From contig CAYTJS010000001.1 in the NCBI GenBank assembly GCA_964438115.1, positions 1 to 35,564 on the forward strand: a stretch of 35,564 bases of DNA. The letters are read 5' to 3'. Source of the stretch: an uncultured Iamiaceae bacterium (GTDB lineage Bacteria; Actinomycetota; Acidimicrobiia; Acidimicrobiales; DATDAH01). Below, one piece after another: positions 4,579 through 32,953 of this stretch. Below the pieces are notes generated by a model. It worked only from the letters and a program-made list of their open reading frames with translations. It searched no databases and was not told the origin of the DNA. How positions within the stretch are numbered: the stretch's first letter is position 1; the number at the start of each line of letters is the position of its first letter. Made by a program: the position numbers and the translations under genes.

Positions 4579-6028
4579 GCACCCGGGCGGCGGCCGCGGC
4601 GCCGGCCCGACGGCCGAAGAAGGAGCCGTCGCCCAGCGAGATCCCGCTCACGTAGCCGTGCACGGCGATGCCCGAGGTCGTGCGCCCGGCGGCGTAGAGG
4701 CCGGGGACCACGCCGCCGTCGGCGTGGCGCACCTCGCTGTCGGGGGTGGTGTCGAGGCCCCCGAGGGTGAACGGGGCGTAGATGGCCTTGGCCACCCGCA
4801 GGTCGATGGCGCCGAGCGGCGGTTCGAGGGGGCGCACCAGCTCGGCCACCTTGTGGAACTCGGGGTCCTCGCCCCGGGCGGCGCCCTCGTTGTAGCGCTC
4901 GACGGTCGCCGCCAGGGCGCCGGCGGGCAGGCCGATGTCGGCCTCGAGCTCGGCGATGGTCTCGGCCGCCCAGGTGGCCCGCATCCCGACGGCGTTGACG
5001 ACGTAGCCGGCCTCGTCGAAGACGAGGTACGCCTCCTCGTCCTGACGCAGGAGGATCTCGAGGCCGATGCGACCGTTGTAGGTGTCCTCGTTGATGAAGC
5101 GCTCGCCCCGGCCGTTGACCAGGATCCCCTCGCTGATCCGCCGCGGTGGGTTCAGGGGCAGCGAGCACTCGAGGGCGTCGAGGTGGCGGGTGGCGCCGCC
5201 GACCCCCTGACCGAGGCGGATGCCGCTGCCGTCGTCGGTGTCGGTGCCCACGTAGAACAGGCAGTGCTCGGCCAGTGGAACGTGCCGACGCACCAGCTCG
5301 GGGTTGTAGATGAACCCGCCGGCGGTGAGGACCACCCCGCCCCGGGCGCGGATGGCGCGCCGGACCCCCGCCTCGACGGCGACCACGCCCACCACGGCGC
5401 CGTCGGCGTCGACCACGAGGCGGTCGACCCGGGTGTCGGTGTGCACCCGGGCGGCGGTGGTGGCGAGGGTGTCGAGCAGGCAGCGCATGATGAAGCCGCC
5501 GGCGGCGTCGGGGTGCTGGGGGTGGTGGCCCCGGGGCGCGGGGCGGGCGATCTCGGCGAAGGGCCAGCTGTCCTCGCCCCCGCTGTAGATCAGGCCGGCG
5601 TCGGTGGGTGGCTCCCGGTCCCGCTCCTCGAAGAACTCGGCCTTGAAGGGCAGCCCGTGGTCGACCAGCCAGTGGTAGTGGGCGACCGAGCCCTCGCAGT
5701 AGGGGCGCACCTTGGCCTCGTCGGCGCCGGGGCCACAGGCCGCCATCAGGAAGGCGGCCATGTCCTCGGGGGTGTCCTCGAACCCGCAGGCCTCCTGGAT
5801 GGGCGTCCCGCCCCCCAGGTAGATGATCCCGCCGGACTGGGCCGAGGTGCCCCCGCCGCCACCGGACCGCTCCAGGGCGATCACGTCGGCCCCGGCGTCC
5901 ACGGCCTCGAGGGCCGCACAGGTGCCGGCGATGCCCAGCCCGACCACGACCACGTCGGCCTCGTCGTCCCAGGCCCCCACCTCGGTGGCGGCGATGGGCT
6001 CGATCGGCTCGGTGCTGTCCTCGGGCAC
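4571..6028 (-). CDS. FAD-binding dehydrogenase (3-ketosteroid dehydrogenase/fumarate-reductase flavoprotein-like)
   Basis: It has an N-terminal Rossmann motif, DVVVVGLGIAGTCAALEAVDAGADVIALERSGGGGGTSAQSGG. GTG start at 6028 with a GAGGGG Shine-Dalgarno sequence upstream. Confidence 0.85.
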   Translation of the reverse strand: MPEDSTEPIEPIAATEVGAWDDEADVVVVGLGIAGTCAALEAVDAGADVIALERSGGGGGTSAQSGGIIYLGGGTPIQEACGFEDTPEDMAAFLMAACGPGADEAKVRPYCEGSVAHYHWLVDHGLPFKAEFFEERDREPPTDAGLIYSGGEDSWPFAEIARPAPRGHHPQHPDAAGGFIMRCLLDTLATTAARVHTDTRVDRLVVDADGAVVGVVAVEAGVRRAIRARGGVVLTAGGFIYNPELVRRHVPLAEHCLFYVGTDTDDGSGIRLGQGVGGATRHLDALECSLPLNPPRRISEGILVNGRGERFINEDTYNGRIGLEILLRQDEEAYLVFDEAGYVVNAVGMRATWAAETIAELEADIGLPAGALAATVERYNEGAARGEDPEFHKVAELVRPLEPPLGAIDLRVAKAIYAPFTLGGLDTTPDSEVRHADGGVVPGLYAAGRTTSGIAVHGYVSGISLGDGSFFGRRAGAAAAARVLS

Positions 6029-8893: not shown

Positions 8894-10525
8894 TCACCGG
8901 CCGACGGTCAGCGTGCGGGCGGTGCGGGGCAGGCGGCCGGTGAGCAGGGCCGTGTGGGCGTCGGCCCAATCGGTCAGTTCGGTGATCATCCCGTCGTCGT
9001 CGAGCAGCCACCACCGGTCCTGGGCGGCGAGGAAGGCCCGGTCGTGGGAGACCGAGATGCAGGTGCCCTCGAAGCCGTCGAGGGCGGCCTCGAGGGCCTC
9101 GGCCGACTCGAGGTCGAGGTTGTCGGTGGGCTCGTCGAGCAACAGGAGGGTGTCGCCGGCCAGCTCGAGGGCCAGGATCTCCAGCCGGGCCTTCTGCCCG
9201 CCCGAGAGCGTCTCGTAGCGCTGACGGGCGCAGCCCTCGAGGCCGTAGCGGGCCAGGTGACGCATGGTCGCCTCGTGGTTGCCGGCCCACCGCTCGACGA
9301 TGGCCCCGGCCTCGACGCCGAGGAAGTCGGGCCGGTCGTTGACCTGGGTGAAGAGGCCGGGCACCACCCGACTGCCGAGCACGATGTCGCCCTCCTCGGG
9401 GGTGAGCTCCCCGGCGATGGCCCGCAGGAGGTGGGACTTGCCGGTGCCGTTGGGGCCGACCAGGGCCAGCCGCTCGCCGTGATGGACCTCGTCGGCGAAG
9501 GGCCACACCAGCCCGTCGAGCCCGGCGCCCTTCACCGTCACCGCCCGGCGGGCCGTGTCCCCGCCCCGCAGCCGCGCCCGCATCGGCCGGGTCACCACCG
9601 GCGGGGGTGGCGGCCCGAGGTCGACCATGCGCTGCCAGCGGGTCTCGGCGGCATCGGCCTTGGAGGCCATCTTCGGGTTGAGTGAGGCCCGCTGCTTCAT
9701 CAGCTTCATGTGCTGGTGGAGGCGACGCTCCTCGGCCTTCCACCGCTCGAGGGCGTCACCGAGCCGGGCCTGCCGGGCCTCGCGGGCCGCCGGGTAGGTG
9801 GCGAAGGAGCCGCCGTGGACCCAGGCCCCGGACCCCTCGAGGGTCACGATGTGGTCGAGGGCGCGGGACAGCAGCTCGCGGTCGTGGCTGATGACCAGGA
9901 CGGTCTTGGGGGAGGTGACGATGAGCTCCTCGAGCCAGGTCTTGGCCGGCACGTCGAGGTAGTTGTCGGGCTCGTCCACCAGCAGGACAGGGGCCTCGGC
10001 CGTGAAGAGCACGTCGAGGGCCAGCTGCTTGAGCTCGCCCCCCGACAGGGTGGTGACCGGGCGGGCCAGCACCTCGTCGAGACCGGCGCCGAGGATGCGG
10101 CGGGTGCTGGCGTCCCACCGCCCCTCCAGCTCGTAGCCGCCCTGCTCGGACCAGCCGGCGATGGCCTCGGCCACCGCCATGCCCGCGCTGTCGTCACCGG
10201 CGGCGAGGCGGGCCTCGGCGGCGGCCAGGGCCTCGCCGGGCGCCCGCAGGCGGGGCGGGGCGAACCCGAGGAGCAACTGGCGCACCGTGCGATCGGTGGC
10301 GAAGCCCACGTCCTGGGGCAGGTAGAGCAGCTCGCCGCCCACGCGGACGTCGCCGGTGGCGGCCGGCAGCTCCCCCGCCAGCACTCGCATCAGGGTCGAC
10401 TTGCCGCTGCCGTTCTCGCCCACCAGGCCCCAGTGCTCACCGGGGCCGACCTTGAAGGAGACCTCGAAGAACAGGTCGTCGCCGCCGGGGTGGGCGTAGG
10501 AGAGGTCGGAGACGACGATGGACAC
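8894..10525 (-). CDS. ABC-F family ATPase (two ABC domains, no TM domain)
   Basis: It has two Walker A motifs (GENGSGKST and GPNGTGKSH), two LSGG signatures and an inter-domain linker, and no membrane domain. GTG start. Confidence 0.9.
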   Translation of the reverse strand: MSIVVSDLSYAHPGGDDLFFEVSFKVGPGEHWGLVGENGSGKSTLMRVLAGELPAATGDVRVGGELLYLPQDVGFATDRTVRQLLLGFAPPRLRAPGEALAAAEARLAAGDDSAGMAVAEAIAGWSEQGGYELEGRWDASTRRILGAGLDEVLARPVTTLSGGELKQLALDVLFTAEAPVLLVDEPDNYLDVPAKTWLEELIVTSPKTVLVISHDRELLSRALDHIVTLEGSGAWVHGGSFATYPAAREARQARLGDALERWKAEERRLHQHMKLMKQRASLNPKMASKADAAETRWQRMVDLGPPPPPVVTRPMRARLRGGDTARRAVTVKGAGLDGLVWPFADEVHHGERLALVGPNGTGKSHLLRAIAGELTPEEGDIVLGSRVVPGLFTQVNDRPDFLGVEAGAIVERWAGNHEATMRHLARYGLEGCARQRYETLSGGQKARLEILALELAGDTLLLLDEPTDNLDLESAEALEAALDGFEGTCISVSHDRAFLAAQDRWWLLDDDGMITELTDWADAHTALLTGRLPRTARTLTVGR

Positions 10526-24953: not shown

Positions 24954-25241
24954 TCAGCTGCGGACCAGGCGGCCGATGGCGGCGGTGGCCTCGTCGATCC
25001 TGGCGGGGCCGTCGGGGCCGCCGGCGGCCACGGCCTCGGTGACGCAGTGCGACAGGTGCTCGTGCACCAGGCCCAGGGCCACCTGCTGCAGGGCCCGGGT
25101 CACGGCCGAGACCTGGTCGAGGACGTCGATGCAGTACCGCTCCTCGTCGACCATCCGGGCGATCCCCCGCACCTGACCTTCGATGCGGGCCAACCGCTTG
25201 GCGATGTCGTCCTTCTGCATGGCGTAACCGGCCACGGGCAC
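24954..25241 (-). CDS. csoR: CsoR-family copper-sensing repressor
   Basis: It has the RLARIEGQVRGIARMV motif and the Cu(I) ligand set C-H-C (YCIDVL...HLSHC). The start is ambiguous: GTG 25241, GTG 25235 or ATG 25220. An AAGGGAG Shine-Dalgarno sequence abuts 25241. Confidence 0.85.
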   Translation of the reverse strand: MPVAGYAMQKDDIAKRLARIEGQVRGIARMVDEERYCIDVLDQVSAVTRALQQVALGLVHEHLSHCVTEAVAAGGPDGPARIDEATAAIGRLVRS

Positions 25242-25261
25242 TCCCTTCTCGGTTGGATCGC

Positions 25262-27508
25262 TCAGACCAGCGGCCGGAAGCGGCGCAGGCGGAGGCTGTT
25301 GGACACGACGAACACGCTGGACAGGGCCATGGCCCCACCGGCGATCAGGGGGTTGAGGAGGCCAGCGGCGGCCAGGGGGAGGGCGGCCACGTTGTAGGCG
25401 AACGCCCAGAACAGGTTTCCCTTGATCGTGCGGAGGGTGCGGCGGGACAGGCGGATGGCGTCCACGGCCACCAGGAGGTCGCCCCGCACGAGGGTCAGGT
25501 CGCTGGCCTCGATGGCCACGTCGGTCCCGGTGCCCATGGCCACCCCCAGGTCGGCGGCGGCCAGCGCCCCGGCGTCGTTCACGCCGTCGCCCACCATGGC
25601 CACGACCCGGCCCTCCTCCTGGAGGCTGGTGACCGCGGCCACCTTGTCGGCGGGGAGGACCTCGGCGACCACCCGGTCGACGCCGACCTCGGCGGCCACG
25701 GCCTCGGCGGCCGCGCGGTTGTCACCGGTCAGCAGCACGGGCTCGAGGCCGAGGTCCCGCAGGCGCCCGATGGCCTCGGCGCTGGAGGGCTTCACCGTGT
25801 CGGCCACGACGACGACGCCGTGGACCGCACCGTCCCAGGCCACCACGACCGCCGTCCGCCCGTTGGCCTCGGCCCGGAGCTGTTCGGCCCCGAGGTCGTC
25901 GGGGACGGCGAGGCCCCGGTCGGCGAGGAGACGGGCCCGGCCGACCACCACGGCCCGACCCTCGACGACGCCCTCGACGCCGAGCCCCTCGCGGTTGGCG
26001 AAGGACTCGACCGGGGGCAACGGACCCAGCCGCTCGCGAGCAGCGTCGGCCACGGCCCGGGCGATCGGGTGCTCGGAGGCGTCCTCCACCGCGCCGGCCC
26101 GGCGCAGGACCTCGTCGGGGTCGGTGCCCGCGGTGGCCGCCACCGCCACCAGCCCCATCCGGCCGGTGGTCACCGTCCCCGTCTTGTCGAGGACGATGGT
26201 GTCGACCTGGCGGGTGGACTCGAGGATCTCGGGGCCCTTGATGAGGATGCCCAGCTGGGCCCCCCGCCCCGTGCCGACCAGCAGGGCGGTCGGCGTGGCC
26301 AGACCCAGGGCGCAGGGGCAGGCGATGATCAGCACCGCCACGGCCGCCGTCACGGCGGTGGTGGGGTCCTCACCCCGCCCCAACCAGAACCCGAGGGTGG
26401 CCACCGACAGGGCGATGACCACCGGGACGAAGACGGCCGACACCCGATCGGCCAGGCGCTGCACCGGCGCCTTGCCCGACTGGGCCTCGGTCACCAGGCG
26501 GGCGATCTGGGCCAGCGCGGTGTCGCTCCCCACCCGGGTCGCCCGCACCACCAGGCGCCCCCCGGCGTTGACGGTGGCGCCGGCGACCGCGTCGCCCACC
26601 CCCACCTCGACGGGCACCGACTCGCCGGTGAGCAGCGACGCGTCGATGGCGGAGGTGCCCTCCTCGACGACCCCGTCGGTGGCGACCTTCTCGCCGGGAC
26701 GCACGACGAAGCGGTCGCCCACCACGAGCTGGTCGACCGGCACCCGCACCTCCGCGCCGTCCCGCAGCACGGCGACGTCCTTGGCCCCGAGGTCGAGCAA
26801 GGCCCGCAGGGCCGCCCCCGACCGCTTCTTGGCCCTCGCCTCGACGTACCGGCCGGCCAGGAGGAACACCGTCACGGCGGCGGCCACCTCGAGGTAGAGC
26901 TCGTGGGTTCCGGCTCCCCGCTCGACCGAGACCGAGAACGACATGGTCATCCCCGGCGCACCCGCCTCACCCCAGAAGAGGGCGTAGACCGACCAGCCGA
27001 AGGCGGCCAGCGTCCCGATCGAGACGAGGGTGTCCATGGTGGCGGCGCCGTGGCGCAGGTTGAGCCACGCCGCCCGGTGGAACGGCCAGGCCCCCCACAC
27101 CACGACGGGCCCGGCCAGGGCGAAGGCCAGCCACTGCCAGTTGGTGAACTGCAGGGCCGGCACCATCGACAGCACCAGCACGGGCAGGGCCAGGACCGCC
27201 GAGACCAGCAGGCGCTGGCGGAGGTCGGCCAGCTCGGGGTCTTCCTCGTCGGCCGCCCGGGCGCCGTCGACGCCAGCCTCGGTCGCGGTCACTGGCAGGC
27301 GGGCCGAGTAGCCGACGCCCTCGACCACAGCGACCAGGTCCTCGGGGCTGACCGAGCCGTCGGTGGTGACCACGGCGTGCTCGGTGGCGTAGTTGACCGA
27401 GGCCTCGACGCCGTCCAGGCGGTTCAGCTTCTTCTCGATGCGGGCGGCGCAGGAGGCACAGGTCATCCCCCCGATCTCGAGGTCGACGGTGGTGGGCGCG
27501 TCCATCAC
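25262..27508 (-). CDS. copA: Copper-exporting P1B-type ATPase
   Basis: It has an N-terminal HMA domain (GMTCASC), a TM6 CPC motif ([13 protein letters not shown]), DKTGT, SEHPIA and [10 protein letters not shown]. Confidence 0.93.
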
Positions 27509-27672
27509 CCCTCCCCGTGCTCGTGGTCGGCCATGGTGGTGGTCGGGCCGGCCGGCACGGTCGTCGGCGCCGGATCGGACCCGGTCGCCGAGCCGATGCC
27601 GTAGGCGGCGACGAAGACCACCAGCAGCACGCCGGCGAAGGCCAGCAGTCGCCGGGCCGCACCCCCGGTCAT
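27505..27672 (-). CDS. 55-aa membrane-anchored protein with a Met/His-rich C-terminus
   Basis: The protein is [57 protein letters not shown]3 is high. Its ATG overlaps the copZ stop (ATGA) and its stop overlaps the copA GTG (GTGA). Confidence 0.55.
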
Positions 27673-27881
27673 GTCCCGGCCAGCTCGTACCCGGCCTCGT
27701 CGACGGCGGCGGCGACCGCGGCCCGGTCGAGCGGGGCCTCGCTGGTGACCTCGACCCGGCCCGACGCCAGGTCGACGGCCACGTCGAGCACGCCGTCGAG
27801 GGCGGCCACCTCCTCGGTCACCGCCCGGACGCAGTGCGCACAGGTCATCCCGGTCACGACGTAGGTCTGCTGCTCGCTCAC
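27669..27881 (-). CDS. copZ: Copper chaperone CopZ (HMA domain)
   Basis: The protein reads [25 protein letters not shown]... from GTG 27881, with a GGAGGTG Shine-Dalgarno sequence at 27892..27886. The longer 105-aa track ORF runs into the upstream palindrome and operator. Confidence 0.85.
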
Positions 27882-27902
27882 TCCCCACCTCCGATCCGAA
27901 TG

Positions 27903-27918
27903 ATACCCCCCTGGGGTA
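27903..27918. promoter_or_regulatory. CsoR-type operator (ATACCCCCCTGGGGTA) overlapping the cop promoter
   Basis: This is a GC-tract palindrome TACCCC-CCT-GGGGTA with AT-rich ends, 22 nt upstream of the copZ start. On the coding strand it runs into TATCAT (27905..27900), a good -10 hexamer. It matches the known CsoR operator style (ATACCC...GGGTAT). Confidence 0.6.
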
Positions 27919-27940
27919 CAGTCCAGTCCACCCCCTGAGT

Positions 27941-27991
27941 CGAAATTGCGTGAGTTGGTCCGCCCAGGAGTGACCAACTCACGCAATTTCG
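27941..27991. terminator. Perfect 20-bp-arm inverted repeat (11-nt loop); probable terminator or insulator between the ATPase-DUF445 operon and the cop operon
   Basis: The sequence is CGAAATTGCGTGAGTTGGTC-cgcccaggagt-GACCAACTCACGCAATTTCG. It lies 13 nt after the DUF445 stop and 22 nt before the CsoR box. The arms are about 50% GC in a window of about 70% GC. There is no U-tract. Confidence 0.55.
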
Positions 27992-28004
27992 GAGTGGGAC
28001 GGGG

Positions 28005-29279
28005 TCAGGCGAGGAGTTGGGTCACCGTGTGGAGGACGAGGCCGGCCAGGGCGCCGACGACCGTGCCGTTGATGCGGATGAACTGCAGGTCGGGGCCGAG
28101 CAGCAGCTCGAGGCGCGACGCCGTCTCCTCGGCGTCCCACCGCTCGATGGTCGCCTGCACCAGGGTGACGATCTCGCCCCGGAAGTGCTCGAGGACGTAG
28201 GTCACCGCCGAGGTGAGGGTGGCGTCGAGCCGGGCCGTCTCCTCGGGGTCCTCCAGTCGAGCCCCGGTGGACGCCACCACGGCGGCCAGCCGGGCCCGCA
28301 GGTCGGGGTCGGGCCGCTCCGCCTGGTCGACCAGCCGTCGGCGCAGCTCGCCCCACATCGACCCGACCCACTCGGCCACGTCGGTGCCGGCCAGCACCTC
28401 GGCCTTCAGCTCCTCGCCCCTCGCGAGCAGGTCGGGCGAGGTCTGGAGATCCTCGGCCAGCTGGGCCAGACGTTGGTCGAAGCGCTGCCGCAGGGCGTGG
28501 TCGTCGTCGTCGAGCATCGCCCCGGTCAGGGTTCGCACCCCGTCGACCAGACGCTCGAACAGCCGGTCCTCGGCGGCGCCGGGCAGCCACCACGGCGACG
28601 CCTCGCCGAGCTGGCGACGCAGGTCGCCCCGGTTGGCGTCGATGAAGACGTCGACCTCCCGGAGCACGGTCTCCAGCGCCTGTTGGTGGCGACCGTCGCG
28701 GATGGCGAAGGCCAGGGCCCGTCCCGCCAGCGGCGCCACCGGGGTGGCCGCGATGCGGGCCCGCACCGTGCCCGCCAGGGCCGTGCCCACCTGCTCCTCG
28801 TCGGCCAGGTGGGCCAGCCGGGCGCCGCCGGCCAGCAGCTCGGTGGCCACCCGGTCGGCGTTGGCCGGCTCCTGCAGCCAGGCGGCGAGCCGGGGCACCG
28901 CCCGCGAGGCGTGAAGCCGGTCCATCACGGCGTCGGGGGTGAGGAAGGTCTCCTGGATGAAGGTGCCGAGGGTCTCGGCGAACTGGTCCTTGCGGGCCAC
29001 GATCACCGCGGTGTGGGGGATGGGCACCCCCAAGGGGTGGCGGAACAGGGCCACCACGGCGAACCAGTCGGCCAGGCCGCCGACCATCGCCGCCTCGGCG
29101 GTGGCCTGGACATAGCCCGCCCAGGTGGCGTCACCGCCCCAGAGCGTCACGGCCAGGAACACGGTGGTCACCGCCGCCAGCAGGGCGGTGGCCCGCCGCT
29201 TCATGACCACCAGGCGCCGGGCCCGGGTCTCGGCACCGGTCACCGGTGGCAGGGCGGCGGTGGTCGTGGCCTCGGTCAT
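28005..29279 (-). CDS. DUF445 (YjiN-like) membrane protein
   Basis: It has the signature GGLADWFAVVALFRHPLGVPIPHTAVIVARK and a C-terminal TM segment (INGTVVGALAGLVLH). ATG 29279 overlaps the ATPase stop (ATGA). The rest of the 1109-aa track ORF is an out-of-frame reading of the ATPase gene. Confidence 0.8.
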   Translation of the reverse strand: MTEATTTAALPPVTGAETRARRLVVMKRRATALLAAVTTVFLAVTLWGGDATWAGYVQATAEAAMVGGLADWFAVVALFRHPLGVPIPHTAVIVARKDQFAETLGTFIQETFLTPDAVMDRLHASRAVPRLAAWLQEPANADRVATELLAGGARLAHLADEEQVGTALAGTVRARIAATPVAPLAGRALAFAIRDGRHQQALETVLREVDVFIDANRGDLRRQLGEASPWWLPGAAEDRLFERLVDGVRTLTGAMLDDDDHALRQRFDQRLAQLAEDLQTSPDLLARGEELKAEVLAGTDVAEWVGSMWGELRRRLVDQAERPDPDLRARLAAVVASTGARLEDPEETARLDATLTSAVTYVLEHFRGEIVTLVQATIERWDAEETASRLELLLGPDLQFIRINGTVVGALAGLVLHTVTQLLA

Positions 29280-31840
29280 CGGCGGGAACCCGCCAAGGCC
29301 CGGCGGCGACGCCACCACTTGTCGGCGGCGTCGGCAGTGAGGACGGCCGGCACCGAGGCCAGGGCCACCATCACGCCGAGCAGGGTCGGCCACGCCTGGT
29401 CGAGGGCCCCGGCCAGCGCCGGCACGAGCAGGCAGGCCAGCCCGATCGCCAGTTCCACGGCCACCGCGACCAGCAGCAGCCGGTTGCCCGTCAGCAAGGT
29501 CCAGGAGAACGGCCGACGCGAGCTGCGGCAGGCGATGGCGTTGGCCGACTGCGCCAGGATCACGGTGAGGAAGGCGGCACCCGACGCCGTGGCCAGCAGG
29601 GCCGTCGACGGCTCGGGCCCGCCGAACGCCCAGCCCCCGACCGCCAGGACGGCGATGAACCCGCCCATCTCGATCAGGGCCTCGGTGGGTCCGAGGACGC
29701 CGAAGGCCCGCCGCCCCACGGTCCGGTCGAAGAGTCGACCCCGCTCGGGAGGTCGGTCCAGGACCTGGTCGCGAGGGACCTCGGCCCCCAGGGCCACGGC
29801 CGAGAAGGTGTCGGTGCCGAGGTCGAGGGCCAGCACCTGCATCACCCCGAGGGCCAACGGGATCGACCGGCCCGAGAGGGCCCAGACGGCGAAGGGGGTC
29901 AGCTCGGCCACGTTGTCGGTCAGGTGGTAGGTGAGGAAGCGCCGGATGTTGGCGAAGGCGGCCCGGCCTTGGGCGATGGCGTCGACGATCGTCGAGAACC
30001 GATCGTCGAGCAGCACCAGGTCGGCGGCGTCGCGGGCCACGTCGGTGCCGACCCCACCCATGGCCACGCCGATGTCGGCCTTCTGGAGGGCGGGGCCGTC
30101 GTTGACCCCGTCGCCGGTCATGGCCACGACGTGGCCCCGCGCTTGCAGGGCCCCGGCGATGCGCAGCTTCTGTTCGGGGCTGACCCGGCTGAGGACGATG
30201 CCATCGTGGTCGACCAGCTCCCCCAGGGCGGCGTCGTCGTCGGGCAGCTCGGCTCCGGTCACCACCGGCGCACCCGGCCGCCACAGCCCGACCTCCTCGG
30301 CGATGGCCCGGGCCGTGGCCGGGTGGTCCCCGGTCACCATGGCCACGTGGACACCGGCCCGCCGGCAGTCGGCCAGGGCCTGGCAGGCGTCGGCCCGGGG
30401 TGGGTCCTCGAAGCCCAGGAGGGCGAGGAGGCGCAGGTCGCTCTCGGCCGCCTGGGCGTCGGCGGGAGGCGTCGGGCCGGTCGGGCGGGAGGCCACCGCG
30501 AGCACGCGCAGGCCCCGACCGGTCAACTCGTCGAGCGCCTCGGCCGCGCCCCTCACGGGGCCACAGCGGGGCAGGACGGCATCGGGGGCCCCCTTCACGA
30601 GCACCTGGCCATCGGCCACCACCGACATGCGTCGGCGCCTGGGGTCGAAGGGGAAGCGGCGGGTGACGGCGGGGGCGGGGGGGACCTCCAGGCGACGGGC
30701 GAGGACGTCGACGGCCGCCTCCATCGGGTCGCCCTGGGCCCGCCAGACCCCGTCGTCGAGCACGGCGTGGCCCGTCGAGCACGCCCGGCCCGCCCACGCC
30801 GCGTGCGTCAGGGCCAGGCGCGCCGACGGGTCGGCCTCGACGGCGGCTTCGGGCTCGTAGCCCTCGCCGTGCACCCGGGCCGACCCGTCGGGCGTCCAGG
30901 CCGCCACCACGGCCATCTGGTTGCGGGTGAGGGTGCCGGTCTTGTCGGTGCAGATGAAGGTGGTCGACCCCAGCGTCTCCACCGACTCGAGATGGCGGAC
31001 CAGGGCCTGGCGCTCGGCCATGCGCTGGGCGCCGATGGCCAGGGAGAGGGTGGTGGTGGGCAGCAGGCCCTCGGGCACCAGCGCCACCGTGATGCCGATG
31101 GCGAAGAGGAAGCCGTCGCTGGGCGGCTGGCCCAACACCAGCATGAGGGCGAAGAAGGCACCGCCCACGCTCACGGCGATCACCGCGATCAGGCGCACCA
31201 CCCGACGCAACTCGACGGTGAGCGGGCTGGGTGGGCGCTCGGCGGCCCGGGCCAGGGCGGCGATGCCCGCCAGCAGGGTGTCGGCTCCGGTGGCCACCAC
31301 CTCGGCCCGGCCTTCGCCCTCGACCACGAAGCAACCGGCGGGGACGGCGTCGCCCTCGTCGAGCGCGGCGGGGACGCTCTCACCGGTGAGGGTCGAGGTG
31401 TCGAGGGCCAGGGCGTGGGCCTCGGTGCAGGTGAGGTCGGCCGAGATGCGGTCACCCGCCCCGAGCACGACGAGGTCGCCGACCACGAGGTCCCGGACAT
31501 CGATGTCGACCTGGCGGCCGTCGCGCACGACGGTGGCCCGCCGGGGGATGAGGTCGCGCAGGCGCTCGGTGGTGTGGAGGGACCGGCGCTCCTGGGCGAA
31601 GGCGAAGATGCCGTTCAGCACCACGACGGCGGCGATGGCCACGCCCAGCTGGGGCAGATCGGCCACCACGGCCAGGGCCGCCGCCGCCCAGAGCATGAGG
31701 GCGAAGAAGTGGACGAACTGCCCGAGCAGCTGGCGCCACGCCGCCGGGGGCGGTGGGGCGGGCAGCTCGTTGGACCCGTCCCGGGCGAGGCGTTCCGCCG
31801 CCTCGCCGCTGGTCAGCCCCGCCGGTGCCACGCCCGCCAT
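29276..31840 (-). CDS. Cation-transporting P-type ATPase, P2-like (Ca2+/Mg2+/alkali-cation type)
   Basis: It has an N-terminal GLTSGEAAERLARDGSNEL, a TM4 PEGL motif, ICTDKTGTLT, MVTGDHPATA and MTGDGVNDGPALQKADIGVAMG. It has no CPC motif or HMA domain. Confidence 0.9.
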   Translation of the reverse strand: MAGVAPAGLTSGEAAERLARDGSNELPAPPPPAAWRQLLGQFVHFFALMLWAAAALAVVADLPQLGVAIAAVVVLNGIFAFAQERRSLHTTERLRDLIPRRATVVRDGRQVDIDVRDLVVGDLVVLGAGDRISADLTCTEAHALALDTSTLTGESVPAALDEGDAVPAGCFVVEGEGRAEVVATGADTLLAGIAALARAAERPPSPLTVELRRVVRLIAVIAVSVGGAFFALMLVLGQPPSDGFLFAIGITVALVPEGLLPTTTLSLAIGAQRMAERQALVRHLESVETLGSTTFICTDKTGTLTRNQMAVVAAWTPDGSARVHGEGYEPEAAVEADPSARLALTHAAWAGRACSTGHAVLDDGVWRAQGDPMEAAVDVLARRLEVPPAPAVTRRFPFDPRRRRMSVVADGQVLVKGAPDAVLPRCGPVRGAAEALDELTGRGLRVLAVASRPTGPTPPADAQAAESDLRLLALLGFEDPPRADACQALADCRRAGVHVAMVTGDHPATARAIAEEVGLWRPGAPVVTGAELPDDDAALGELVDHDGIVLSRVSPEQKLRIAGALQARGHVVAMTGDGVNDGPALQKADIGVAMGGVGTDVARDAADLVLLDDRFSTIVDAIAQGRAAFANIRRFLTYHLTDNVAELTPFAVWALSGRSIPLALGVMQVLALDLGTDTFSAVALGAEVPRDQVLDRPPERGRLFDRTVGRRAFGVLGPTEALIEMGGFIAVLAVGGWAFGGPEPSTALLATASGAAFLTVILAQSANAIACRSSRRPFSWTLLTGNRLLLVAVAVELAIGLACLLVPALAGALDQAWPTLLGVMVALASVPAVLTADAADKWWRRRRALAGSRR

Positions 31841-31860
31841 CGTGCCAGGGGCCGGGCCGG

Positions 31861-31866
31861 TACGGT
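31861..31866 (+). promoter_or_regulatory. Candidate -10 (TACGGT) for a leaderless SnoaL-like transcript
   Basis: A TANNNT hexamer ends 6 nt before ATG 31873. The divergent intergenic region is only 32 bp. Confidence 0.3.
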
Positions 31867-31872
31867 CACCCG

Positions 31873-32256
31873 ATGGCCGAGGGCATGGTCGCCGAGTTGC
31901 TCGCCGCCAACGGCGCGTTCTACGAGGCCCACGAGGCCCGGGACCTGGCGGCCATGACCGCGCTGTGGGAGCACAGCGATCGGGCCACCTGCATCCACCC
32001 TGGTTGGCCCATCCTGCGGGGCTGGCCCGAGGTCGAGGCGTCGTGGGCCCGGATCTTCGACGGACCCGGTCGCTTGCAGTTCATCGTGACCAACGAGGCC
32101 GTCACCGCCGAGGGCGATCTGGCCTGGGTCACCCTCGACGAGAACCTGGTGACCGACGGCGCCACGGGCACCGTGGCCGCGACCAACCTGTGGGCCCGTA
32201 CCGCGGCCGGGTGGCGCCTGGTGCTCCACCACGGCTCGCCGGTGGCGGGCCGCTAG
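31873..32256 (+). CDS. SnoaL-like / NTF2-fold (DUF4440-type) protein
   Basis: 127 aa from ATG 31873. The sequence NGAFYEAHEARDLAAMTALWEHSDRATCIHPGWP...NLWARTAAGWRLVLHHGSP is the typical pattern of this family. Confidence 0.75.
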   Translation: MAEGMVAELLAANGAFYEAHEARDLAAMTALWEHSDRATCIHPGWPILRGWPEVEASWARIFDGPGRLQFIVTNEAVTAEGDLAWVTLDENLVTDGATGTVAATNLWARTAAGWRLVLHHGSPVAGR

Positions 32257-32265
32257 CGCGAGCGG

Positions 32266-32442
32266 TCAGCCCTTCCGGGACCAGGGCCACGTCCGGCCCC
32301 CGCCGCTGCGGGCGGCCCGGGACGACCCCTGGCACTGGCACCGGTCCGAGGGCGCCACGTCGCCGAGCACCTGCTCGACGTGGGCGCCGCACCCGGCGTA
32401 GGAGGGACGCTGGCACTGGCTGCACGTGATCCTTCTGCACAT
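32266..32442 (-). CDS. 58-aa cysteine-rich protein (six Cys), unknown function
   Basis: The protein is MCRRITCSQCQRPSYAGCGAHVEQVLGDVAPSDRCQCQGSSRAARSGGGRTWPWSRKG. The Cys pattern is C-x4-C-x2-C-x8-C-x16-C-x-C. About 56 of 58 codons end in G or C. ATG 32442 lies inside a CsoR-type palindrome. An alternative TTG start at 32478 would add 12 aa. Confidence 0.5.
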   Translation of the reverse strand: MCRRITCSQCQRPSYAGCGAHVEQVLGDVAPSDRCQCQGSSRAARSGGGRTWPWSRKG

Positions 32443-32456
32443 ACCCCCCAGGGTAT
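32441..32456. promoter_or_regulatory. Second CsoR-type operator (ATACCCCCCAGGGTAT)
   Basis: This is a palindrome ATACCC-CCCA-GGGTAT. It shares the 9-mer ATACCCCCC with the cop operator. It overlaps the start codon of the Cys-rich ORF. Confidence 0.5.
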
Positions 32457-32478
32457 ATCGGAGGGAACCTCGACGCAA

Positions 32479-32492
32479 ACCCCGGGGGGTAT
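32479..32492. promoter_or_regulatory. Third, degenerate CsoR-type box (reverse strand ATACCCCCCGGGGT)
   Basis: The same ATACCCCCC 9-mer is present on the minus strand, and the right half is GGGGT. It lies 38 bp centre to centre upstream of box 2 and touches the VOC gene stop codon. A TTGCGT (-35-like) hexamer follows it on the minus strand. Confidence 0.35.
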
Positions 32493-32953
32493 CAGCCGAG
32501 GTCGGGCGTGCCCTCCATCAGCTCGATGCGCACCCCGTCGGGGTCGGTGAGGTAGAGCAGGCGCACCGGCGGGCCCCCGAAGGGGCTCTCGAGCTCGGAA
32601 CGGGTGGCGGCGTGGACCGCCCCGCCCCAGGCCTCGGCCGCCGCCTGGTGCTCGTCGACGTCCTCCACCCGGAAGCAGAGGTGGGTGAGCCCGAAGCGGG
32701 TCATCGGTCGTCGCTCGCGGTCCCCCTCCGCCGTCGGCTCGATCCAGTGCAGCAGCTCGACGCGCACGTCGTCGCGGCGCAGCATGCGGGACTCGAAGGC
32801 GATGTCGCCGTCGACCTCCATGGTCGCCCCCACCTCGGCGCCCATCTCGGTGGTGAACAGCTCGGTGAAGCCGAGCACCTCCCGGTAGAAGCTGGTCGAG
32901 CGCTCGAGGTCGGAGCAGCAGACACCCACGTGCGAGAACCCCTGGATGGCCAT
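32492..32953 (-). CDS. VOC-family (glyoxalase/bleomycin-resistance/dioxygenase) protein
   Basis: 153 aa from ATG 32953. The sequence MAIQGFSHVGVCCSDLERSTSFYREVLGF...GLTHLCFRVEDVD...LTDPDGVRIELME fits the family. The upstream part of the 271-aa ORF is an antisense reading of the DUF35 gene. Confidence 0.85.
   Translation of the reverse strand: MAIQGFSHVGVCCSDLERSTSFYREVLGFTELFTTEMGAEVGATMEVDGDIAFESRMLRRDDVRVELLHWIEPTAEGDRERRPMTRFGLTHLCFRVEDVDEHQAAAEAWGGAVHAATRSELESPFGGPPVRLLYLTDPDGVRIELMEGTPDLG

Follow-up and report, generated by a model that had tools for sequence, protein, structure and literature searches.

The window analysed here, a stretch of 35,564 nucleotides with a G+C content of 74% from an uncultured Iamiaceae bacterium, carries on its minus strand (32442..32266) a small open reading frame (ORF) which encodes the 58-residue peptide MCRRITCSQCQRPSYAGCGAHVEQVLGDVAPSDRCQCQGSSRAARSGGGRTWPWSRKG. 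The start codon of this ORF lies at the edge of a palindrome resembling the operators of CsoR-family repressors, and a second such box is found a short distance upstream. A first-pass annotation of the stretch had put the ORF forward as a candidate member of the copper regulon, controlled by the CsoR protein encoded at 24954..25241, and its product as a possibly metallothionein-like peptide. The comparison with related loci presented here points to a different class of regulator, namely the CstR-type sensors of sulfane sulfur.

Box 1 (32441..32456) is a perfect 16-bp palindrome with the sequence ATACCCCCCAGGGTAT, or ATACCCTGGGGGGTAT on the gene strand, and covers the ATG as had been described (ATACCC-CCCA-GGGTAT). 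It spans positions -14 to +2 relative to the A of the start codon (32442..32440, minus strand), its last two bases being the A and the T of this codon. Box 2 (32477..32492; ATACCCCCCGGGGTTT on the gene strand, positions -50 to -35) is imperfect, and its core AACCCCGGGGGGTA at 32478..32491 deviates at one position from TACCC-N4-GGGTA. It was correctly placed next to the hexamer TTGCGT, the first T of which it overlaps; with its other end it abuts the stop codon (TGA, 32492..32494) of a glyoxalase-family gene. The centres of the boxes lie at about -42 and -6 and are thus 36 bp apart. Both boxes are of the type TAC-X8-GTA, and both agree with the pattern given for operators of the CsoR/RcnR family (PMC3902906), box 1 as TACCCCCCAGGGTA and box 2 as AACCCCGGGGGGTA. 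The 9-mer ATACCCCCC is present three times in the window (at 27903 and 32441 on the plus strand and at 32484 on the minus strand), that is, twice at the ORF besides the copy in the cop operator, just as the first-pass annotation had counted. The expected number is 0.13, and one of 100 shuffled sequences reached three copies. For TACCC-N4-GGGTA with at most one mismatch there are two matches in the window, compared with 0.32 expected, and 4 of 100 shuffled sequences reached two. Inside the window alone the enrichment of the box is only modestly significant.

The G+C content at third codon positions of the ORF is 0.95, and a word-indexed search returned 123 homologues of 50-78 residues with E-values down to 3e-16; those with a name are all labelled 'hypothetical'. 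Relatives are encoded in at least 460 GTDB species genomes, and a profile search against 1.84 billion cluster representatives gave 1203 clusters at 50% identity. The earlier assumption that the ORF is coding is borne out by the third-position bias and by the conserved family, which show it to be a real gene for a protein. The conserved domain comprises residues 1-37 (MCRRITCSQCQRPSYAGCGAHVEQVLGDVAPSDRCQC) and is followed by a basic tail. Its cysteines are spaced C2-x4-C7-x2-C10-x7-C18-x16-C35-x-C37 and are joined by His21; all spacings but one had been given correctly before, the distance to the fourth cysteine being x7 and not x8. The pattern of the 37-residue core can therefore be written as MC-x4-C-x2-C-x7-C-x2-H-x13-C-x-C. 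Among 268 members, Met1 is conserved in 97%, Cys2 in 98%, Cys7 in 99%, Cys10 in 100%, Gly17-Cys18-Gly19 in 100%, His21 in 100%, Arg34 in 98%, Cys35 in 98% and Cys37 in 93%, and the positions Pro13, Glu23, Gln24, Val25, Leu26 and Val29 are 85-97% conserved. The Met-Cys start, found in 97-98% of the members, identifies the ATG at 32442 as the true start.

The family is found mainly in Acidimicrobiia and Myxococcota, with some outliers. Two members come from a eukaryote, the bdelloid rotifer Adineta ricciae (P0241 and P0267); they are 113-116 residues long and possess a long acidic tail. Fusions are also seen, namely with a DUF2892-like transmembrane segment (P0261) and with an OsmC-like domain (P0227). 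The closest relative, P0270 with 75% identity, is encoded on a non-syntenic 6.5-kb contig. The Cys6His domain is without a record in Pfam, NCBIfam, the PDB or the literature, in keeping with the earlier failure to place the peptide in a named family: no Pfam match was obtained even at E <= 10, NCBIfam gave only noise-level matches to RnfB and Fe-S models (15-16 bits against cut-offs of 378-445), no sequence relative below E = 0.3 turned up in a PDB profile search, and literature searches for the peptide motif, for CstR in Acidimicrobiia and for small Cys-rich proteins in CstR regulons yielded nothing relevant.

We compared 80 loci carrying a homologue of the small gene, 447 kb in total, and considered as neighbours the genes within 3 kb; in the neighbour clustering a codon-position GC filter excluded wrong-frame ORFs in this high-GC DNA. 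In 41 of these loci the box TACCC-N4-GGGTA occupies positions -13..+1 relative to the ATG (40 perfect copies and one with a single mismatch; consensus tgATACCCTagGGGGTATG), and six of the loci contain the exact 16-mer of the window. All 41 box-bearing loci are labelled Actinomycetota, and most belong to the Acidimicrobiia. Most loci hold a single box. The GGGTT variant seen in box 2 recurs in tandem boxes upstream of cstR-like genes (L039 and L079). It is these comparative data that make the boxes decisive, because about half of the homologous loci keep the same box in the same register with respect to the ATG. The earlier recognition of the boxes as CsoR-type sites is therefore well founded, and on the comparative evidence both boxes are genuine CsoR-family operators placed to repress the small gene.

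Upstream of the gene we find a putative -35 hexamer TTGCGT (32473..32478, minus strand) and, 17 nt further on, a putative -10 hexamer TACCCT (32450..32455, minus strand), which fits the actinobacterial TANNNT pattern and ends 7 nt before the A of the ATG. A TTG at -40..-28 occurs in 20 of the 41 box-bearing sequences, the window included. Since there is a TTG near -36, TACCCT at -13..-8 and no Shine-Dalgarno sequence, the arrangement suggests a leaderless mRNA with the -10 hexamer and the start codon inside the operator. CsoR/RcnR-family operators characteristically cover parts of the core promoter of their target gene, often as two sites in tandem. Six Acidimicrobiia homologues (L002, L005, L013, L043, L050 and L062) have lost the 3' arm of the box, and a hexamer similar to TA(C/A)C(G/A)T still precedes their ATG by 7-8 nt, with the register unchanged. 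Such retention of the hexamer without the palindrome fits a 5' arm that doubles as the -10 of a leaderless promoter.

These observations raise the question whether a repressor is needed at all to explain the conservation. The conserved sequence could simply be a -10 hexamer in the context of a leaderless ATG: TACCCT is an acceptable -10, and the homologues without the palindrome maintain a TACCGT-like hexamer in register. However, the 3' arm GGGGTAT has been kept exactly complementary to the 5' arm, and within these loci the same 14-16-bp palindrome is also found away from any ATG, upstream of genes for persulfide dioxygenase (PDO), sulfide:quinone oxidoreductase (SQR) and CstR. A second possibility without a repressor would be an RNA hairpin acting on read-through transcripts. 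In the minus-strand RNA 32425..32510, as would arise if transcription of the glyoxalase-family gene read through, the two boxes pair with each other in a perfect 14-bp stem with a folding free energy of -42.5 kcal/mol (z = -3.76; none of 200 shuffled sequences folds as well). This stem would bury the AUG of the small gene, but it may be a simple by-product of two similar palindromes, and in most loci a pairing partner is lacking because they hold a single box. We consider an explanation without any repressor site, be it promoter context or hairpin, highly improbable.

Which regulator acts on the boxes is best approached through the length of the operator. The cop operator of the window, TACCCCCCTGGGGTA at 27904..27918, lies upstream of copZ, copA and csoR and is used here as a comparator only. 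It is of the type TAC-X9-GTA, one bp longer than both boxes of the ORF, and is the sole X9 box in the window, 4.5 kb from the small gene. The 9-mer shared by the cop operator and the ORF boxes reflects only the common half-site ATACCC and a C-tract. We set the loci of the small gene beside a second set of 80 loci (472 kb) around relatives of the window CsoR with 49-72% identity. Counting perfect boxes, the small-gene loci contain 60 X8 and no X9 boxes, whereas the Cu-CsoR loci contain 84 X9 boxes and three X8 boxes. The regulators differ in the same way. Of the 19 CsoR-family genes in the small-gene loci 18 encode an x-C-x-C protein with glycine at the position of the copper-ligand histidine, and one is disrupted; the 81 CsoR-family genes in the Cu-CsoR loci all encode C-H-C proteins and have copZ and copA as frequent neighbours. 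An x-C-x-C regulator lies within 3 kb in 18 of the 80 small-gene loci, 17 of which are among the 41 with a box, and in about 11 loci the regulator gene follows the small gene directly on the same strand. These regulators have the persulfide sensor SpCstR (7MQ1) as their best PDB match and share with CstR the signature RDC..VTQL...LT.C. The CsoR of the window, indeed a CsoR as had been annotated (PF02583, E = 7e-29), displays the copper ligand set C-H-C (RYC...HEHLSHC) and matches the Cu-CsoR of Streptomyces lividans (4ADZ) at 9e-30.

The genes behind the X8 boxes point in the same direction. Assignable perfect X8 boxes away from the ATG of the small gene precede genes for CstB-like PDO-rhodanese proteins (Lactamase_B with three rhodanese domains), SQR-like Pyr_redox_2 flavoproteins, a rhodanese, CMD/AhpD-like proteins, a TehB-like methyltransferase and cstR-like regulators, and neighbour clustering of the small-gene loci also yielded TauE, DUF302 and DUF2892. 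A PDO, CstR, SQR, TauE or rhodanese gene is situated within 3 kb in 21 of the 41 box-positive loci. Conversely, neither copA nor copZ was found within 3 kb of the small gene in any of its 80 loci, and the small gene is absent from the 80 Cu-CsoR loci. Thus, within this clade the X9 spacing accompanies Cu-CsoR and the cop genes, and the X8 spacing accompanies regulators of the CstR type and genes for sulfide oxidation.

These counts bear directly on the proposal that the gene belongs to the copper regulon. According to it the Cu(I)-sensing CsoR at 24954..25241 would repress the ORF via both boxes, copper would induce it, and the peptide would buffer Cu(I) in the manner of a metallothionein, as in the RicR/MymT system. 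In favour of this proposal a Cu-type CsoR with the C-H-C ligand set is encoded 7 kb away, as the only CsoR-family protein seen in the window, and the half-site is common to the cop operator. Moreover, the operator of the Mycobacterium tuberculosis copper sensor RicR, TACCCCGCTGGGTA, is of the X8 type, and MymT, a small Cys-rich protein, is under RicR control (PMC3944814); we have here as well a small Cys-rich protein behind a TACCC-N4-GGGTA box of a CsoR-family repressor. But RicR is a C-H-C copper sensor, and the intact regulators adjoining the homologues of the small gene all lack the copper-ligand histidine. MymT is confined to pathogenic mycobacteria, whereas the small-protein family extends over Acidimicrobiia, Myxococcota and beyond; it also has a conserved non-Cys core. 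The comparison with Cu(I)-CsoR and copZA leads to the same distinction, as all three characterised operators of S. lividans CsoR are TAC-X9-GTA (PMC3902906): the half-site (A)TACCC, the G/C tract and the regulator family are shared, but the boxes of the small gene are one bp shorter and its homologues have no association with cop genes. Together with the mismatch in spacing within the window, the two box counts and the sulfide-oxidation genes behind the X8 boxes, this makes control by the window CsoR unlikely, and we do not uphold the assignment to its regulon. Homologues do also lie behind CsoR-family boxes, in 41 of the 80 loci, but the intact regulators encoded beside the small gene are CstR-type and not Cu-type proteins.

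The closest described parallel is the sulfane-sulfur sensor ScCsoR (SCO0620) of Streptomyces coelicolor, a member of the actinomycete CstR cluster, which is cluster 3 of the CsoR family (PMC7533328, PMC8643695). Its target is the 16-bp sequence ATACC-n6-GGTAT, bound at positions -48 and -9 of the pdo promoter (PMC7533328). The two boxes of the window agree with this 16-bp geometry and are similarly spaced (about 39 bp apart in S. coelicolor and 36 bp here), with one over the putative -10 region and start and the other near -45, and the host is likewise an actinobacterium. In related Acidimicrobiia loci the box precedes genes for PDO-rhodanese, rhodanese and the x-C-x-C regulator, with TauE nearby. 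The differences are that the boxed gene of the window encodes a 58-residue Cys6His protein outside the described four-gene circuit, that neither a regulator of this type nor a sulfur enzyme is encoded in the window, and that the operator is here fused to a putative leaderless start codon. Similarities also exist to the CstR systems of Staphylococcus aureus, Enterococcus faecalis and Streptococcus (PMC8643695): the regulators in the homologous loci share the x-C-x-C dithiol and the CstR signature, and the regulon includes, as does the Firmicute cst operon, a CstB-like PDO-rhodanese and SQR. In contrast, the operator quoted for Streptococcus mitis is TAC-X9-GTA, and a small Cys6His protein has not been reported in the Firmicute regulons.

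Taken together, we think it probable that transcription of the small gene is leaderless and repressed by a sulfane-sulfur sensor of the CstR type which is encoded outside the window. The Cys6His mini-protein itself probably binds metal and belongs to the response to thiol/persulfide stress. The promoter would consist of the -35 hexamer TTGCGT, a 17-nt spacer and the -10 hexamer TACCCT, and the first transcribed base would be the A of the ATG or one adjacent to it. Two 16-bp ATACC-N6-GGTAT operators would bracket this promoter, one over the -10 and the start and one just upstream of the -35, and a pair of CstR-type tetramers on both X8 operators would occlude -35, -10 and +1. The repressor would be a dithiol x-C-x-C protein lacking the copper-ligand histidine, encoded elsewhere than in these 35.5 kb and sensing persulfide or sulfane sulfur. 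Persulfide or polysulfide would then cross-link the sensor cysteines, the repressor would leave the DNA and the mini-protein would be made. The transcription start, the promoter, the identity of the regulator in the source genome, the inducer, the metal binding and the biochemical role are inferred.

Several points weigh against this reading. A CstR-type gene and genes for PDO, SQR and rhodanese are absent from the 35.5-kb window, and the sole CsoR-family protein visible in it is the Cu-type protein 7 kb away; about half of the box-positive loci resemble the window in that sulfur genes are absent from the surrounding 3 kb. The promoter and the leaderless start are deduced features, and a generic E. 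coli-type sigma-70 scan called neither promoters nor terminators in 32150..32650. The function of the protein has no structural or family match to lean on, and its structural model is of moderate quality. Finally, the M. tuberculosis copper sensor RicR uses an X8 site, TACCC-N4-GGGTA (PMC3944814), while the cst operator of S. mitis is X9 (PMC8643695). We therefore rejected spacing as an absolute criterion. As spacing is no universal code, our argument rests on the clade-specific association of X8 boxes with CstR-type regulators. That spacing can matter to an individual regulator is seen with the CstR-like TTHA1953 of Thermus thermophilus, whose affinity drops 10-15-fold when one base is added or removed between the repeats (PMC10318464).

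One may also ask whether both kinds of regulator could act on the gene, a Cu-type CsoR and a CstR-type paralogue reading the shared ATACCC half-sites, so that the gene would answer to copper and to reactive sulfur. The half-sites are identical, and the two boxes, one perfect and the other imperfect, could allow differential occupancy. There is a chemical link between the two stresses, as thiols and metal sites are targets of sulfide as well as of Cu(I). Moreover, the loci of Cu-type CsoR genes contain three X8 boxes among their 87 perfect boxes of either spacing, and in two loci such a box stands beside an X9 box. In these two (L111, ~9907..9965, and L113, ~4742..4800), upstream of a Cu-type csoR gene, the X9 box TACCCCCATCGGGTA is 45 bp from the X8 box TACCCCACGGGGTA; such mixed tandem boxes are rare and mark a possible place for cross-talk between the operator classes. 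Against dual control speaks, however, that the split of X8 and X9 boxes between the two sets of loci is nearly complete and that known paralogue pairs keep apart: CsoR and CstR of S. aureus do not cross-regulate (PMC8643695), and the same holds for TTHA1953 and its Cu-CsoR paralogue TtCsoR of T. thermophilus, which shows no cross-binding (PMC10318464). We rate dual control as quite unlikely and retain repression by a CstR-type sensor as the preferred reading.

In the Myxococcota the small gene has another setting. No CsoR-family box was found at the Myxococcota homologues. Instead the gene follows a thioredoxin or OsmC gene and stands beside a pair of genes for an extracytoplasmic function (ECF) sigma factor and a zf-HC2 anti-sigma factor. 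In L167 the order is ECF sigma/zf-HC2, thioredoxin, small gene and DUF302, the thioredoxin stop codon overlapping the ATG of the small gene; in L168 and L081 the small gene follows an OsmC gene, again beside ECF sigma and zf-HC2 anti-sigma genes. The motif AA(T/C)CCTT-N11-12-GGCTC occurs 28 times in 894 kb, and 18 of these copies precede small-gene units, in 17 loci. It is placed directly upstream of the small gene in L012, L014, L022, L024, L058, L059, L067, L071 and L048 and upstream of the preceding thioredoxin gene in L037, L040, L046, L056, L057 and L073. From its conservation only, we infer that it is an ECF-sigma-like promoter motif. The clusters of ECF sigma/zf-HC2, thioredoxin or OsmC, small gene and DUF302 recall the thiol-stress regulons of the SigR-RsrA type, with a regulator class unlike that of the window. 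The box in the Acidimicrobiia and the ECF context in the Myxococcota therefore suggest that different sensors of thiol-reactive stress govern the gene in the two phyla.

An AlphaFold2 model of the peptide (mean pLDDT confidence score 74) shows a beta-hairpin at residues 3-16 and short helices, with C7-x2-C10 on the predicted hairpin and C18-x2-H21 preceding a helix. A Foldseek search of the PDB with this model returned nothing below E = 2; the weak, non-significant matches above this value are to PHD, CW, FYVE and RBR zinc-finger folds. The metallothionein-like character proposed earlier for the peptide is doubtful: non-Cys residues of the family form an invariant, fold-like core, and no metallothionein family is matched in Pfam or NCBIfam at E <= 10. 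Cysteines make up only 6 of the 58 residues (10%), unlike in metallothioneins, and Pro13, Gly17, Gly19, Glu23, Gln24, Leu26, Val29 and Arg34 are 85-100% conserved. The seven invariant ligands, arranged in C-x2-C, C-x2-H and C-x-C knuckles, together with the rigid core argue for a structured module with one or two metals and not for a plastic metallothionein. Most likely the 37-residue core would fold as a zinc-finger-like knot around one or two metal ions (Zn or Fe-S). The protein is probably active in thiol/persulfide homeostasis, for instance as a thioredoxin-reducible sulfane-sulfur acceptor or as a redox-sensitive metal site, and a copper sponge is unlikely. A role in the handling of sulfane sulfur or oxidised thiols, as the partnership with thioredoxin, OsmC, DUF302 and PDO would indicate, is speculative. 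More tentatively still, and with the odds in our judgement against it, the Cys6His mini-protein could found an undescribed class of thiol/persulfide-stress metalloproteins (either an acceptor of sulfane sulfur coupled to thioredoxin or a Zn/Fe-S module switched by redox state), recruited by a CstR-type repressor in Acidimicrobiia and by ECF sigma factors with their zinc-binding anti-sigma factors (ZAS) in Myxococcota and present in at least 460 bacterial species and in bdelloid rotifers, in which the alpha-amine of Cys2, exposed after removal of Met1, would be the eighth ligand for two tetrahedral metal sites.

The genes around the small gene (32266..32442, minus strand) are as follows. On one side lies the convergent SnoaL-like gene (31870..32256, plus strand), on the other the glyoxalase/VOC-family gene (32492..32953, minus strand; PF00903, E = 2e-14), the stop codon of which touches box 2. 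Next to the SnoaL-like gene there is a gene for a P2-type cation ATPase (29276..31840, minus strand) with Cation_ATPase_N and Cation_ATPase_C domains, followed by a DUF445 gene (from 28005, minus strand) and the cop cluster with copZ (27669..27878), copA (25262..27508) and csoR (24954..25241), all on the minus strand. Given this arrangement over 24954..32953, the small gene looks monocistronic. No VOC homologue was found near the small gene in the 80 homologous loci; judged by these loci the glyoxalase-family gene is a neighbour and not a conserved partner, and none of the glyoxalase-family, SnoaL, DUF445 and P2-type ATPase genes is a conserved partner of the small gene elsewhere. The ATPase is a Ca/Mg-like P2-type pump and not a heavy-metal pump, and no CsoR-family box was found upstream of it. 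With such a gene, itself without a box, between them, the cop operon and the small gene do not form one contiguous metal island. The best named relatives of this ATPase come from Acidimicrobiia (62-66% identity), which supports, without proving, the transfer of the Acidimicrobiia regulon logic to the source organism.

Two further features were noted in the cop region. At 27941..27991, in the interval that separates the cop operator from the end of the DUF445 gene (28005), the arms of a perfect 20-nt inverted repeat (CGAAATTGCGTGAGTTGGTC / GACCAACTCACGCAATTTCG) flank an 11-nt loop. The repeat may form a terminator-like hairpin that lacks a T-tract, or another regulator may bind there. A small ORF at ~27505..27672 on the minus strand, between copZ and copA and with its end overlapping the start of copA, encodes one hydrophobic helix and a His-rich C-terminus (...MADHEHGEG), and its product may be a small membrane-bound copper-binding accessory protein.

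For the annotation of genomes of this clade it follows that ATACCC-type boxes should be split by spacing before they are assigned to a regulon and that closeness to a cop operon is no basis for inferring copper regulation. Persulfide sensing by CstR-type proteins has been studied in detail in Firmicutes, and Streptomyces provides one worked example; a regulon in Acidimicrobiia was not found in the literature searched. In the loci examined here the gene most commonly preceded by the box is not an enzyme gene but the small Cys6His gene. The small gene would thus be a widespread, uncharacterised candidate component of bacterial sulfide and thiol-stress handling, for which a 58-residue peptide, two operators and a predicted inducer can now be named.

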